The notes under the pieces are model-generated. The model ran no database searches. It was not told where the DNA came from and saw nothing but the letters and a program-made list of their open reading frames with translations. Positions 6,966 to 45,357 of a DNA stretch of 64,000 nt are shown here, piece after piece (positions within the stretch are counted from its first letter, which is position 1; each line of letters begins with the position of its first letter). The stretch lies in assembly GCF_003334765.1 (NCBI RefSeq), contig NZ_QOWT01000005.1, one strand, 5' to 3'. This DNA comes from Escherichia coli. Lineage in GTDB: Bacteria; Pseudomonadota; Gammaproteobacteria; Enterobacterales; Enterobacteriaceae. Both the position numbers and the translations under genes were made by a program.

Positions 6966-6976
6966 AGGAAAGAACA

Positions 6977-7001
6977 TTGCCCGGTCAGGATGGCCGGGCA
7001 A
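6977..7001. terminator. Bidirectional hairpin between convergent parE and ygiN (TTGCCCGG-9 nt-CCGGGCAA)
   Basis: 8-bp perfect inverted repeat read directly between two convergent stops. Confidence 0.5.
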
Positions 7002-7012
7002 ACAAGGCAGGA

Positions 7013-8590: not shown

Positions 8591-8635
8591 TAAAATCTAT
8601 GAGAGTCGTTTTAACGGCTCTCATAGACAGAGAAG

Positions 8636-14495: not shown

Positions 14496-16754
14496 ATGAG
14501 CGATATGGCAGAGCGCCTTGCGCTACATGAATTTACGGAAAACGCCTACTTAAACTACTCCATGTACGTGATCATGGACCGTGCGTTGCCGTTTATTGGT
14601 GATGGTCTGAAACCTGTTCAGCGCCGCATTGTGTATGCGATGTCTGAACTGGGCCTGAATGCCAGCGCCAAATTTAAAAAATCGGCCCGTACCGTCGGTG
14701 ACGTACTGGGTAAATACCATCCGCACGGCGATAGCGCCTGTTATGAAGCGATGGTCCTGATGGCGCAACCGTTCTCTTACCGTTATCCGCTGGTTGATGG
14801 TCAGGGGAACTGGGGCGCGCCGGACGATCCGAAATCGTTCGCGGCAATGCGTTACACCGAATCCCGGTTGTCGAAATATTCCGAGCTGCTATTGAGCGAG
14901 CTGGGGCAGGGGACGGCTGACTGGGTGCCAAACTTCGACGGCACTTTGCAGGAGCCGAAAATGCTGCCTGCCCGTCTGCCAAACATTTTGCTTAACGGCA
15001 CCACCGGTATTGCCGTCGGCATGGCGACCGATATTCCACCGCATAACCTGCGTGAAGTAGCTCAGGCGGCAATCGCATTAATCGACCAGCCGAAAACCAC
15101 GCTCGATCAGCTGCTGGATATCGTGCAGGGGCCGGATTATCCGACTGAAGCGGAAATTATCACTTCGCGCGCCGAGATCCGTAAAATCTACGAGAACGGA
15201 CGTGGTTCAGTGCGTATGCGCGCGGTGTGGAAGAAAGAAGATGGCGCGGTGGTTATCAGCGCATTGCCGCATCAGGTTTCAGGTGCGCGCGTACTGGAGC
15301 AAATTGCTGCGCAAATGCGCAACAAAAAGCTGCCGATGGTTGACGATCTGCGCGATGAATCTGACCACGAGAACCCGACCCGCCTGGTGATTGTGCCGCG
15401 TTCCAACCGCGTGGATATGGATCAGGTGATGAACCACCTCTTCGCTACCACCGATCTGGAAAAGAGCTATCGTATTAACCTTAATATGATCGGTCTGGAT
15501 GGTCGTCCGGCGGTGAAAAACCTGCTGGAAATCCTCTCCGAATGGCTGGTGTTCCGCCGCGATACCGTGCGCCGCCGACTGAACTATCGTCTGGAGAAAG
15601 TCCTCAAGCGCCTGCATATCCTCGAAGGTTTGCTGGTGGCGTTTCTCAATATCGACGAAGTGATTGAGATCATTCGTAATGAAGATGAACCGAAACCGGC
15701 GCTGATGTCGCGGTTTGGCCTTACGGAAACCCAGGCGGAAGCGATCCTCGAACTGAAACTGCGTCATCTTGCCAAACTGGAAGAGATGAAGATTCGCGGT
15801 GAGCAGAGTGAACTGGAAAAAGAGCGCGACCAGTTGCAGGGCATTTTGGCTTCCGAGCGTAAAATGAATAACCTGCTGAAGAAAGAACTGCAGGCAGACG
15901 CGCAAGCCTACGGTGACGATCGTCGTTCGCCGTTGCAGGAACGCGAAGAAGCGAAAGCGATGAGCGAGCACGACATGCTGCCGTCTGAACCTGTCACCAT
16001 TGTGCTGTCGCAGATGGGCTGGGTACGCAGCGCTAAAGGCCATGATATCGACGCGCCGGGCCTGAATTATAAAGCGGGTGATAGCTTCAAAGCGGCGGTG
16101 AAAGGTAAGAGCAACCAACCGGTAGTGTTTGTTGATTCCACCGGTCGTAGCTATGCCATTGACCCGATTACGCTGCCGTCGGCGCGTGGTCAGGGCGAGC
16201 CGCTCACCGGCAAATTAACGTTGCCGCCTGGGGCGACCGTTGACCATATGCTGATGGAAAGCGACGATCAGAAACTGCTGATGGCTTCCGATGCGGGTTA
16301 CGGTTTCGTCTGCACCTTTAACGATCTGGTGGCGCGTAACCGTGCAGGTAAGGCTTTGATCACTTTACCGGAAAATGCCCATGTTATGCCGCCGGTGGTG
16401 ATTGAAGATGCTTCCGATATGCTGCTGGCAATCACTCAGGCAGGCCGTATGTTGATGTTCCCGGTAAGCGATCTGCCGCAGCTGTCGAAGGGCAAAGGCA
16501 ACAAGATTATCAACATTCCATCGGCAGAAGCCGCACGTGGAGAAGATGGTCTGGCGCAACTGTACGTTCTGCCGCCGCAAAGCACGCTGACCATTCATGT
16601 TGGGAAACGCAAAATTAAACTGCGTCCGGAAGAGCTACAGAAAGTCACTGGCGAACGTGGACGCCGCGGTACGTTGATGCGCGGTTTGCAGCGTATCGAT
16701 CGTGTTGAGATCGACTCTCCTCGCCGTGCCAGCAGCGGTGATAGCGAAGAGTAA
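14496..16754 (+). CDS. parC: DNA topoisomerase IV subunit A
   Basis: 752 aa; GyrA/ParC family with catalytic Tyr region (AAMRYTE). Confidence 0.95.
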
Positions 16755-16795: not shown

Positions 16796-16825
16796 GCCGG
16801 ATGAAACGTTAAGTCGTCATCCGGC
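16796..16825. repeat. REP-like palindromic hairpin (GCCGGATGA-12 nt-TCATCCGGC) downstream of parC
   Basis: 9-bp perfect inverted repeat with the GCCGGATG core typical of REP/PU elements. Confidence 0.5.
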
Positions 16826-16987
16826 AGCGTATTCAACCCCCGGAAACGATAAAAATTCCCTTGAAACCGTTGTTTATTCATGCGTTGCGATTAACAATAC
16901 GCTTTTCCAGAGAGCGGCTTTTAACAATGCCCTAACCTGATTTCAGGTGACGTACAATGCCAGTCTCTCAGACCTTCAGAGGGTGTT

Positions 16988-17725
16988 ATGCTATATATCT
17001 TTCGTCTTATTATTACCGTGATTTACAGCATCTTAGTCTGTGTATTCGGCTCCATTTACTGCCTTTTCAGCCCGCGTAACCCGAAACATGTGGCCACCTT
17101 TGGGCATATGTTTGGCCGTCTTGCGCCGCTGTTTGGCCTGAAAGTTGAGTGCCGTAAACCTACAGACGCTGAAAGCTACGGCAATGCTATCTATATCGCT
17201 AACCACCAGAACAACTATGACATGGTGACAGCATCGAACATCGTGCAACCGCCGACGGTGACGGTAGGTAAAAAGAGCTTGCTGTGGATCCCCTTCTTCG
17301 GGCAGTTGTACTGGTTAACCGGCAACTTATTGATCGACAGAAACAATCGCACTAAAGCTCACGGCACCATTGCGGAAGTAGTGAATCACTTCAAAAAACG
17401 CCGTATTTCCATCTGGATGTTCCCGGAAGGAACCCGCAGCCGTGGTCGCGGCCTGCTACCGTTCAAGACTGGAGCATTTCACGCGGCAATTGCGGCGGGC
17501 GTCCCGATTATTCCCGTGTGCGTCTCTACAACTTCGAATAAGATTAATCTTAATCGACTGCACAACGGTCTGGTGATTGTCGAAATGCTGCCGCCAATTG
17601 ACGTCAGTCAGTATGGCAAAGATCAGGTTCGTGAGCTGGCTGCCCATTGTCGTTCGATAATGGAACAAAAAATCGCCGAGCTCGATAAAGAAGTCGCAGA
17701 ACGCGAAGCCGCCGGAAAAGTTTAA
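16988..17725 (+). CDS. plsC: 1-acyl-sn-glycerol-3-phosphate acyltransferase
   Basis: 245 aa; HxxxxD acyltransferase motif (ANHQNNYD) and FPEGTRS motif. Confidence 0.9.
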   Translation: MLYIFRLIITVIYSILVCVFGSIYCLFSPRNPKHVATFGHMFGRLAPLFGLKVECRKPTDAESYGNAIYIANHQNNYDMVTASNIVQPPTVTVGKKSLLWIPFFGQLYWLTGNLLIDRNNRTKAHGTIAEVVNHFKKRRISIWMFPEGTRSRGRGLLPFKTGAFHAAIAAGVPIIPVCVSTTSNKINLNRLHNGLVIVEMLPPIDVSQYGKDQVRELAAHCRSIMEQKIAELDKEVAEREAAGKV

Positions 17726-21542: not shown

Positions 21543-21547
21543 AAAAT

Positions 21548-21583
21548 ATCCCCGGCAACTGACACGCTACCGGGGATTTTTTT
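21548..21583. terminator. Bidirectional intrinsic terminator between ygiQ and yqhH (ATCCCCGG-loop-CCGGGGAT, flanked by A6 and T7)
   Basis: 8-bp stem with T-run on the plus strand and A-run upstream, read directly. Confidence 0.75.
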
Positions 21584-21584
21584 A

Positions 21585-23018: not shown

Positions 23019-23846
23019 TTAGCCGCCGAACTGGTCAGGATCGGGACCGAGACGCTTGCCCTGATCGAGTTTTGCAATTTCGCCGAGTTCGTCTTTGTCG
23101 AGACGGAAATCCCAGACATCAAAGTTTTCGGCAATACGTGAAGGTGTGACCGATTTCGGGATCACCACCAGGCCGCTATCCAGATGCCAGCGGATAACAA
23201 TCTGCGCCGGGGTTTTGCCGTATTTATCTGCCAGATCGCGAATGACTTTCTGATCGAAAACGCCTTTCCCTCCTTGCGCTAATGGGCTCCAGGATTCGGT
23301 CTGGATTTTGTGTGTCGCGTTCCAGGCGTGTAGCTGGCGTTGTTGCATCAGCGGATGAAGTTCGATCTGGTTTATCACAGGCGTCACGCCAGTTTCATCA
23401 ATCAGGCGTTGCAGGTGATGGATCTGGAAGTTGCACACGCCGATGCTTTTGATTAATCCCTCTTTTTGCAATTCGATCATGCCTTTCCATGCTTCGACAT
23501 AATGGTCGATAGCGGGAACGGGCCAGTGCATTAAGTAGAGGTCGATATAATCAAGCTGGAGTTTTTTCAGGCTGTCGAGCAGGGCTTCGCGGGGGCGCTT
23601 GTGGTCGTCGTTCCACAGCTTAGTGGTGATGAACAGTTCTTCTCTGTTGACTGAGGCATTTTTCAGGGCTTTGCCGACACCTTCTTCGTTCTTGTAGGCC
23701 GCGGCGGTATCAATCGAGCGATAACCCACTTCTAACGCTTTTTGAATGGCGGTGATTACTTCCTCATTACTTGCTTGCCAGACGCCCAGTCCCAGCTGGG
23801 GCATGACATTGCCATCCTGTAGCTTAATAACGGTTGGATTAGCCAT
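23019..23846 (-). CDS. dkgA: Aldo-keto reductase DkgA (2,5-diketo-D-gluconate reductase A)
   Basis: 275 aa; AKR family; downstream of yqhD. Confidence 0.9.
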   Translation of the reverse strand: MANPTVIKLQDGNVMPQLGLGVWQASNEEVITAIQKALEVGYRSIDTAAAYKNEEGVGKALKNASVNREELFITTKLWNDDHKRPREALLDSLKKLQLDYIDLYLMHWPVPAIDHYVEAWKGMIELQKEGLIKSIGVCNFQIHHLQRLIDETGVTPVINQIELHPLMQQRQLHAWNATHKIQTESWSPLAQGGKGVFDQKVIRDLADKYGKTPAQIVIRWHLDSGLVVIPKSVTPSRIAENFDVWDFRLDKDELGEIAKLDQGKRLGPDPDQFGG

Positions 23847-23950
23847 ACGTTCCTCCTTTATATGAACTCACCGGAGCAGGCTCCGGTGAGGTGTTGTGAA
23901 CTTAAGTCTGGACGAAATGCCCGAAAACGAAAGTTTGAGGCGTAAAAAGC

Positions 23951-26207: not shown

Positions 26208-26246
26208 ATACGTTCCCGGTACAGCAGCCGGGAACGGGGAAAATCG

Positions 26247-29651: not shown

Positions 29652-29656
29652 AAATG

Positions 29657-29691
29657 ATGCCCGGTTGCTTTTCACAACCGGGCATTTTTTT
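29657..29691. terminator. Bidirectional intrinsic terminator between exbD and yghA (ATGCCCGGTTG-7 nt-CAACCGGGCAT plus T7)
   Basis: 11-bp perfect stem followed by a T-run, read directly. Confidence 0.8.
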
Positions 29692-31259: not shown

Positions 31260-31266
31260 TCTGATT

Positions 31267-31293
31267 CGGGCGCGGTTCTCGCGCCCGTTATTA
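31267..31293. terminator. Hairpin between yqhA and yghZ (CGGGCGCG-5 nt-CGCGCCCG)
   Basis: 8-bp GC stem read directly, followed by TTATT. Confidence 0.55.
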
Positions 31294-31298
31294 ACAGG

Positions 31299-40273: not shown

Positions 40274-40522
40274 ATGTGTATTGGCGTTCCAGGCCAGGTG
40301 CTGGCTGTCGGTGAAGATATTCACCAGCTTGCGCAGGTTGAAGTATGTGGTATCAAGCGCGACGTGAATATCGCCCTGATTTGTGAAGGTAACCCTGCCG
40401 ATCTGCTGGGCCAGTGGGTACTGGTACACGTCGGATTTGCCATGAGCATTATCGATGAAGACGAAGCCAAAGCCACATTAGACGCACTGCGCCAAATGGA
40501 TTACGACATTACCAGCGGGTGA
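40274..40522 (+). CDS. hybG: Hydrogenase maturation factor HybG (HypC family)
   Basis: 82 aa; N-terminal MCIGVP motif typical of HypC. Confidence 0.9.
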
Positions 40523-40530
40523 TGATTAAA

Positions 40531-40564
40531 GCCGGATGCGGCGTAAATGCTTTATCCGGCTACA
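40531..40564. repeat. REP (repetitive extragenic palindrome) element
   Basis: GCCGGATGCGGCGTAAATGCTTTATCCGGCTACA closely matches the classic E. coli REP consensus; lies between convergent hybG and yghU. Confidence 0.8.
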
Positions 40565-40591
40565 TAGCGATAAGCCTGCCAATGTTGCGAC

Positions 40592-41458
40592 TTACCCCTG
40601 ACGCTTATCTTCCGTATTCGTCTCGAAATCACTGGCGTCATGGCGCTCATGCAACTGCTCGTTCAGCGGCCCGTTGGTGCGGTTAACAATACGCCCACGC
40701 TTCACCGCCGGACGTTCGCCCACTTCTTTCGCCCAGCGTTGTACGTGTTTATAACTTTCCGCATCAAGAAACTCTGCGGCATCATACACGCCGCCTAACA
40801 CCACGTTGCCAAACCACGGCCAGATCGCCATATCCGCAATGGTGTACTCATCGCCCGCAACAAACTTGTGCTGCGCCAGTTGCTTATCCAGCACGTCGAG
40901 CAGGCGCTTGGCTTCCATGGTAAAGCGGTTGATGGCGTACTCAATTTTCACCGGCGCGTAATGGTAAAAGTGACCAAAACCACCGCCGAGGAACGGTGCC
41001 GCGCCCTGTAACCAGAACAGCCAGTTCAGCGTTTCAGTCCGTTTTGCCAGATCCTGCGGCAGGAAGTAGCCAAATTTCTCCGCCAGATAAAGCAGAATCG
41101 ATCCAGACTCAAACACGCGGATCGGTGGATTATGGGTATGGTCGCGCAATGCCGGGATCTTCGAGTTTGGGTTCACTTCGACAAAGCCGCTGGAGAATTG
41201 ATCGCCATCGCCAATACGAATCAGCCAGGCGTCATACTCTGCACCAGTAACACCCAGCGCCAGCAGCTCCTCAAGCATAATCGTTACTTTCTGTCCGTTT
41301 GGCGTTCCCAGCGAATAGAGTTGCAGCGGATGTTTGCCCACCGGCAGCGTTTTTTCATGCGTCGGACCAGAAACCGGGCGATTGATATTGGCGAACGCGC
41401 CGCCAGCGGATTTATCCCACGTCCAGACTTTCGCGGGCTGATAAGTATTGTCTGTCAT
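40592..41458 (-). CDS. yghU: Glutathione-S-transferase-family protein YghU
   Basis: ORF 40592-41506; start chosen at MTDNTYQPAKVWTWDK (288 aa). Confidence 0.85.
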   Translation of the reverse strand: MTDNTYQPAKVWTWDKSAGGAFANINRPVSGPTHEKTLPVGKHPLQLYSLGTPNGQKVTIMLEELLALGVTGAEYDAWLIRIGDGDQFSSGFVEVNPNSKIPALRDHTHNPPIRVFESGSILLYLAEKFGYFLPQDLAKRTETLNWLFWLQGAAPFLGGGFGHFYHYAPVKIEYAINRFTMEAKRLLDVLDKQLAQHKFVAGDEYTIADMAIWPWFGNVVLGGVYDAAEFLDAESYKHVQRWAKEVGERPAVKRGRIVNRTNGPLNEQLHERHDASDFETNTEDKRQG

Positions 41459-45309: not shown

Positions 45310-45317
45310 CCTTCCTG

Positions 45318-45356
45318 AAAATGCCCGGTCCTGGCGATCGGGCATTTCCATTTTTG
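45318..45356. terminator. Bidirectional terminator between pitB and yghT (AAATGCCCG-11 nt-CGGGCATTT plus T-rich tail)
   Basis: 9-bp stem read directly followed by TTCCATTTTT. Confidence 0.65.
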
Positions 45357-45357
45357 A

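Follow-up and report, generated by a model that had tools for sequence, protein, structure and literature searches.

A slightly decayed Y-type REP after hybG and a non-canonical REP-like hairpin after parC in Escherichia coli

Genes and convergent junctions of the window

The 64-kb stretch of DNA analysed here (hereafter, the window) is the reverse complement of positions 2525456–2589455 of Escherichia coli B771 (NZ_CP120557.1), from which it differs by a single mismatch, and the B771 annotation was mapped onto it (Table 1). The window extends from ygiC/tolC through parE, parC and plsC to the hyb operon and further to the glc operon. Two intergenic hairpins are considered in this study. The first, denoted site A, lies in the 69-bp spacer (40523–40591) that separates hybG from the convergently oriented yghU; it starts 8 nt past the hybG stop codon, and its last base is 27–28 nt away from the stop codon of yghU. 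The second, denoted site B, is located between parC and plsC, a tandem pair encoded on the plus strand; it starts 41 nt past the parC stop codon, and a further 162 nt separate its end from the start codon of plsC.

Table 1 Coordinates of the genes, REP-related elements and other hairpins within the window
Feature	Position	Strand	Description
parE/ygiN hairpin	6966–7012		Non-REP hairpin at a convergent junction
ygiZ/qseC hairpin	8591–8635		Non-REP hairpin at a convergent junction
parC CDS	14496–16754	+	Stop codon 16752–16754
Hairpin beside the parC stop codon	16762–16782	+	GGGAGG-9 nt-CCTCCC; at the position of the C/G-rich terminator-like hairpin that most Enterobacteriaceae have downstream of parC
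Site B hairpin	16796–16825	+	GCCGGATGAaacgttaagtcgTCATCCGGC; perfect 9-bp stem GCCGGATGA/TCATCCGGC, 12-nt loop
Equivalent of in vitro-mapped Rho-binding site	16847–16890	+	K-12 3163579–3163622, mapped via the identical K-12 sequence
plsC CDS	16988–17725	+	Same direction as parC
ygiQ/yqhH hairpin	21543–21584		Non-REP hairpin at a convergent junction
yqhC/yghB hairpin	26208–26246		Non-REP hairpin at a convergent junction
exbD/yghA hairpin	29652–29689		Non-REP hairpin at a convergent junction
yqhA/gpr hairpin	31260–31298		Non-REP hairpin at a convergent junction
hybG CDS	40274–40522	+	Last gene of the hyb operon; from the ORF list and B771 annotation, 100% match; stop codon 40520–40522
Site A, single Y-type REP	40531–40563	CTAC at 3′ end on +, GTAG on −	Located by consensus and covariance model; sequence of 40531–40564, GCCGGATGCGGCGTAAATGCTTTATCCGGCTACA
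Site A, lower stem	40531–40537/40554–40560		7-bp foot GCCGGAT/ATCCGGC
Site A, GC/TT (AA-GC) bulge	40538–40539/40552–40553		Reads AA/GC on the GTAG strand
Site A, weakened upper stem and loop	40540–40551
Site A, CTAC	40560–40563		1-nt overlap with the stem
yghU CDS	40592–41458	−	Convergent with hybG; B771 annotation; stop codon 40592–40594
pitB/yghT hairpin	45310–45357		Non-REP hairpin at a convergent junction
lptG-like/spt hairpin	52696–52729		Non-REP hairpin at a convergent junction
yghO/glcC hairpin	58331–58405		Non-REP hairpin at a convergent junction

The preliminary description of this DNA had presented REP elements as marks of convergent gene ends. This is true of hybG/yghU, but parC and plsC are arranged in tandem, and hybG/yghU is the only one of the ten convergent junctions in the window to contain a REP. 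The other nine carry strong non-REP hairpins with GC-rich stems (−14 to −32 kcal/mol), mostly flanked by A/T runs and of the bidirectional-terminator type. In a published survey, approximately 60% of REPs were found between convergent genes and approximately 40% between tandem genes, with about 30% of the convergent spacers (207 of 704) containing a REP (bioRxiv 10.64898/2026.03.23.713779). Taken together, the published fraction and the count in the window show that, although enriched at convergent ends, REPs are not a reliable or general marker of such ends.

Elsewhere in the window, the segment from yghS to yghO (46969–56817) encodes, on the minus strand, proteins annotated as a fatty acyl-AMP ligase, an epimerase/dehydratase, an acyl carrier protein and a serine palmitoyltransferase (spt), and, on the plus strand, second copies annotated as LptF/LptG, a YtfJ-family protein and a lipopolysaccharide biosynthesis protein; this gene block looks like an envelope-lipid module. 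Searches against Rfam yielded no match at site A or site B, the only match in the window being to the ES173 sRNA at 23885–23948 on the minus strand, within the yqhD–dkgA spacer (99 bits; gathering threshold, 90). The matching segment is unrelated to REPs, folds no better than shuffled sequences (z −0.4) and is followed by an ordinary hairpin, CTCACCGGAGCctgCTCCGGTGAG.

The element after hybG is a diverged member of the Y-type REP family

The hallmarks of E. coli REPs are an imperfect palindrome, an AA-GC bulge that is conserved, and a flanking GTAG tetranucleotide on which TnpA-REP crucially depends (PMC8266576). Site A resembles the Y-type REPs of E. coli (group 2 REPtron; Stern/Higgins/Gilson; Ton-Hoang 2012; Corneloup 2021, PMC8266576) in its GCCGGAT/ATCCGGC foot, AA-GC bulge and CTAC/GTAG tag, in its length of about 34 nt, in its extragenic location within a 3′ UTR, and in having at least 40 detectable family copies per genome. 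It differs from the canonical Y REP in its upper stem and loop, which contain three substitutions, in the overlap of the tag with the stem, and in being a single unit rather than part of a bacterial interspersed mosaic element (BIME).

For comparison with the family, the Y and Z1 consensus sequences were confirmed against the textbook copies in the yaaX–yaaA spacer of K-12. In a gapped edit-distance scan, site A is separated from the Y consensus, GCCGGATGCGGCGTGAACGCCTTATCCGGCCTAC, by 4 edits over 34 positions, namely, the three substitutions and the loss of one C in GGCCTAC, whereas the best scores in 20 dinucleotide-shuffled windows were 8–11. An ungapped scan of the window with a Stern-type IUPAC consensus, allowing up to three mismatches, produced no match, since site A, with its 1-nt deletion, can be aligned only if a gap is permitted. 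We further searched the window, with filters off, using a covariance model (denoted R1). The model was trained on 11 independent REPs that came from other strains and loci, and both site A and site B were excluded from it. Site A scored 32.8 bits (E = 7.7e-6) and was the sole significant match in the 64 kb. A 39-nt query covering site A had at least 40 matching places in every genome of a set of 5,426 complete E. coli genomes. The short edit distance, the R1 score and the number of copies per genome collectively identify site A as a genuine, slightly decayed member of the dispersed Y-type REP family. Thus, the REP reported after hybG was correctly recognised, but the epithet “classic” has to be tempered, given the three substitutions, the 1-nt deletion in GGCCTAC, and the polymorphism of the locus described below. 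No second match to the REP model was found in the hybG–yghU spacer, where site A stands alone and does not form a BIME, an element in which two or more REPs alternate in orientation with a linker between them. Clusters of REP half-sites at approximately 55,560–55,710 and at 23,694–23,705 were rejected as REPs, being located in coding sequence.

REPs are non-autonomous palindromic repeats that are spread by the REP-associated transposase, TnpA-REP/RayT, acting on single-stranded DNA. In single-stranded form, the GTAG strand of site A folds with −8.0 kcal/mol compared to −12.2 kcal/mol for a canonical Y REP; the GTAG is shifted by one nucleotide, so that it overlaps the last stem pair, and its AG is paired in this fold. 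Both upper-stem substitutions are transitions, such that G-U pairs are kept in the RNA of the plus (hyb-sense) strand and pairing is broken on the other strand. The folds of the RNA have energies of −19.2 kcal/mol on the plus strand (z −3.5 compared to shuffled sequences) and −14.8 kcal/mol on the minus strand. With the tag drawn into the stem by the 1-nt deletion and the upper stem weakened on the GTAG strand, site A is probably no longer a good substrate for the transposase and, as a mobile element, is probably inactive, although the predicted folds suggest that it still forms a solid RNA hairpin. It seems unlikely that site A is, instead, a mobile, TnpA-REP-competent element that is not decaying: the GTAG tetranucleotide and the AA-GC bulge are literally present, and SELEX indicates that the upper stem and loop are partly tolerant to change (PMC8266576), but the pairing of the tag and the two mismatches in the upper stem of the GTAG strand speak against competence, as does the stability of the haplotype, which is near-identical in about 800 genomes.

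The rayT gene itself (K-12 247637–248134) lies outside the window and is detectable by megablast in 3,575 of the 5,426 complete E. coli genomes. All 5,426 nevertheless contain at least 40 REP-like copies; in many lineages, REPs seem to persist although a close homologue of rayT is lacking.

REP copy number is polymorphic in the hybG–yghU spacer

At least four alleles of the hybG–yghU spacer are found among E. coli strains. The single-REP allele of the window is present in approximately 803 of the 5,426 genomes, 801 of which are near-identical to the site A query. In K-12, the spacer contains a BIME, in which a linker separates an inverted Z1-type REP from a Y REP, with the first REP starting 15 nt past the stop codon. 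Strains O18:H1 and EC5654 share a hybrid allele that includes an additional partial arm, whereas FDAARGOS_448 carries two BIME units (four REPs), the first Y REP of which has an IS1397 copy in its loop, flanked by a duplication of GAAC. Junctions of the IS1397 type at the hybG BIME were counted in at most 439 genomes, an upper bound inflated by cross-matches to other Y-REP/IS1397 junctions.

Site A occupies the same locus and the same Y REP position as the BIMEs of K-12 and other strains. Unlike these BIMEs, the window allele lacks a 62-nt block and has a diverged right flank. In the alignment, the window allele corresponds to the hybrid allele minus this block, which comprises the partial arm, the Z1 REP and the linker and is flanked by 9-nt direct repeats, GCCGGATGC. 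Because the window allele has accumulated its own substitutions and its right flank has diverged from that of the hybrid allele, it is, judging from the alignment, an old haplotype and not a fresh deletion.

The parC–plsC hairpin falls outside the canonical REP family

The stem-loop at site B is stable, with an RNA folding energy of −17.2 kcal/mol (z −3.9 compared to shuffled sequences), and both its arms are identical to the 8-nt lower-stem sequence of REPs. Beyond these arms, the resemblance fades. The R1 model aligned with the lower stem alone, at scores no better than chance (minus strand, 12.7 bits, E = 0.6; plus strand, 9.8 bits, E = 3.1), and the edit distance to the Y consensus, 9–11, falls inside the range of the shuffles. 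There is no GTAG/CTAC tag, with no GTAG directly 5′ of the palindrome on either strand (the flanks read ggaac...agcgt), and, the stem being perfect, no AA-GC bulge. Finally, no dispersed copies were found, with site B occurring in exactly one place per genome (blastn, word size 11, E up to 10). Site B, therefore, is a real hairpin but not a canonical REP, and fails all four of the testable features that define the family. The preliminary description had called it REP-like, had suggested a search of the window and genome with a REP model, and had named a poor formal match as evidence to the contrary. In the search of the window, site A was significant and site B was at the level of chance; the hairpin and its likeness to REPs hold, whereas a formal assignment to the family does not.

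The list of K-12 REPs nevertheless includes this hairpin. REP223 is placed at 3163674..3163645 of K-12 MG1655, between parC and plsC, and assigned to the class “Tandem” (bioRxiv 10.64898/2026.03.23.713779, supplement). The K-12 sequence at these coordinates is that of site B to within one base, and REP223 and site B do not differ in sequence or place. REP223 is accordingly unlike the canonical REPs in its perfect stem, its lack of GTAG and bulge, its single copy and its chance-level model score. Neither element is new, as had been stated at the outset: site A belongs to the Y-type REP family and site B is the listed REP223. In the same supplement, the label REP222 is given to the bidirectional terminator hairpin at exbD/yghA (ATGCCCGGTTG...CAACCGGGCAT), at which R1 has no match at E up to 10. 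Since the REP222 hairpin is without a model match, the K-12 list appears to be liberal and to include non-consensus hairpins.

The nine GC-stem hairpins at the other convergent junctions of the window, most of them flanked by A/T runs, and the few REPs that coincide with intrinsic terminators (bioRxiv 10.64898/2026.03.23.713779) raise the question of whether one or both of the hairpins studied here are bidirectional or ordinary Rho-independent terminators rather than REPs. Intrinsic-terminator scans of both strands were negative at the two sites, whose stems lack a trailing T-run whichever strand is read, and the strong match of site A to the REP model also argues against terminators. We have rejected this identity for both sites and consider it very improbable.

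IS1397 inserts into the loop of the parC–plsC hairpin

IS1397, a member of the IS3 family, is described as specific for the loops of REP/PU sequences (Clement 1999, Wilde 2001/2003, as cited in PMC1525189). In strain BH100N, an IS1397 copy interrupts the site B hairpin precisely within its loop and is accompanied by a TAAG duplication. All eight of the other independent IS1397 insertions that we sampled are located in loops of GCC(G/T)GATG...ATC(C/A)GGC hairpins, with duplications of 3–4 bp. In this respect, the loci of both sites behave as IS1397 targets, each carrying the element in the hairpin loop in other strains with a 4-bp duplication, whereas the window itself, unlike the occupied targets, contains no IS1397. 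Disruption of the site B hairpin is rare, being observed in at most four of the 5,426 genomes. Compared to the usual targets, site B is accepted by the transposase despite having neither GTAG nor the bulge, which suggests that IS1397 recognises mainly the GCCGGATG foot and the geometry of the loop.

Origin and conservation of the parC–plsC hairpin

In other genera of the Enterobacteriaceae, the parC–plsC spacer mostly contains just a C/G-rich terminator-like hairpin after parC. The hairpin found at this place in E. coli, beside the parC stop codon (Table 1), does not pass a simple terminator (T-run) scan. Its sequence varies between species and its C/G-rich stem stays (GGGAGG/CCTCCC in E. coli and CCCCCTC/GAGGGGG in Enterobacter), a pattern that looks like compensatory evolution of a terminator-like structure.

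At the position of site B itself, a two-REP BIME is found in Citrobacter amalonaticus, a Citrobacter metagenome-assembled genome and Salmonella arizonae (R1 scores of 24–38 bits), and nothing in the other Citrobacter, Enterobacter, Kluyvera and Klebsiella loci that were compared. In a MAFFT alignment, site B is in register with the CTAC-oriented outgroup REP and identical to the C. amalonaticus copy at 25 of 36 positions, including the loop motif CGTTAA; its right flank is homologous as well. Site B also forms an island of conserved sequence. Within E. coli, 5,404 of the 5,426 genomes share the spacer at 99% identity or more, and site B is present in two further species-level representatives of Escherichia. 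In the more divergent of these two, one of 18 stem positions differs compared to 28 of 66 positions in the immediate flanks (Fisher p = 0.004).

We consider it likely that, alongside the genuine but decayed Y-type REP at site A, site B represents an old REP relic that has lost the tag and the bulge and become fixed in Escherichia. The relic would have arisen at a REP-prone site and, upon losing these features, turned into a perfect hairpin. For site B, this origin is read from the positional alignment with only three outgroup loci, the other loci compared having nothing at that position, and independent insertions at a hot spot are a possible explanation for the shared position.

Several of the observations would also fit with site B being an independent, non-REP hairpin that serves at the parC 3′ end or in attenuation and has no more than the GC-rich GCCGGATG foot in common with REPs. 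These include the chance-level covariance model score, with the lower stem alone aligning, the edit distance within the shuffles, the missing GTAG/CTAC and bulge, the strong conservation of what is a single-copy sequence in all genomes, and the lack of a REP at that position in most Enterobacteriaceae; the IS1397 insertion would then reflect a relaxed structural specificity of its transposase. Such an unrelated hairpin, however, has to account for the exact 8-nt REP foot in both arms and for true REPs at the same position of the spacer in Citrobacter and Salmonella, in register and with a common loop motif. Moreover, all eight of the other sampled independent IS1397 insertions are in recognisable or degenerate Y/Z REPs. 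An independent origin is, in our estimation, conceivable but doubtful. We also considered, and dropped, the derivation of site B from a collapsed BIME, which would fuse the 5′ arm of one REP with the 3′ arm of the REP inverted relative to it: the outgroup BIMEs are arranged head-to-head, an arrangement from which a simple deletion cannot produce such a product, and the in-register alignment with a single REP is a further argument against it.

Potential roles of the two hairpins in the 3′ UTRs

The hairpin of site A is the only stable structure between the stop codons of hybG and yghU and lies in the 3′ UTRs of both genes. REPs have been characterised as context-dependent 3′-UTR elements, acting as partial Rho-dependent terminators and as blocks to 3′ exonucleases; convergent gene pairs flanking a REP display elevated expression, and genes with terminal REPs show no general difference in half-life and a large dependence on context (bioRxiv 10.64898/2026.03.23.713779). 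Accordingly, mRNA stabilisation, the role tentatively offered in the preliminary description, is just one of several documented, context-dependent roles of REPs. By analogy with this literature, from which we derive all putative RNA-level functions of sites A and B, site A would become part of the 3′ UTRs of its neighbours upon transcription and would most likely form a 3′ stem-loop in the hyb mRNA, with a weaker counterpart in the yghU mRNA. The stem-loop would be expected to slow down 3′-to-5′ exonucleases and to favour partial, Rho-assisted termination. REPs located less than 16 nt from a stop codon can reduce translation of the upstream gene through ribosome stalling (Liang et al. 2015, as reported via PMC12306157). 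Because it starts only 8 nt past the hybG stop codon, site A is a candidate for such an effect and may lower the translation of HybG by stalling terminating ribosomes.

Site B is REP-like in being a target of IS1397 and, probably, as a 3′-UTR hairpin. In K-12, an in vitro-mapped Rho-binding site is located 23 nt downstream of REP223 (bioRxiv 10.64898/2026.03.23.713779, supplement). This arrangement fits attenuation of the read-through from parC to plsC: the presumed REP relic at site B is probably a structural element of the parC 3′ UTR, positioned just upstream of the Rho-binding site, which would modulate read-through into plsC. A more far-reaching possibility, which we put forward only tentatively, is that site B is an exapted relic, devoid of the features that mobility requires, which purifying selection maintains throughout Escherichia because the parC 3′ UTR depends on its structure. 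Together with the Rho-binding site, it would set the level of parC-to-plsC read-through, and the strain-specific REP/BIME alleles after hybG would similarly tune the output of HybG and YghU.

The 137 nt immediately upstream of plsC (16851–16987), which overlap the in vitro Rho-binding site, differ at only 2 of 137 positions among Escherichia representatives. The core of this segment, aaaatttcccgtaaaaccgttgtttattcgtgcgttgcgattaacaata, is conserved in Salmonella, Citrobacter, Enterobacter, Lelliottia and Kosakonia, far above the level of a typical spacer, and the segment may serve plsC as a promoter or a regulatory region.

Implications

Few bacterial repeats are as well known as REPs, and the two elements described here both correspond to entities already catalogued in K-12, so that the significance of our results lies mainly in corrections to annotation. 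In particular, the “REP” labels of reference lists include hairpins that fail every test defining the family. Beyond annotation, the hybG/yghU spacer is a clear case of polymorphism in REP/BIME copy number and IS1397 insertion, which could yield strain-specific 3′-UTR regulation of the hydrogenase-2 maturation genes.
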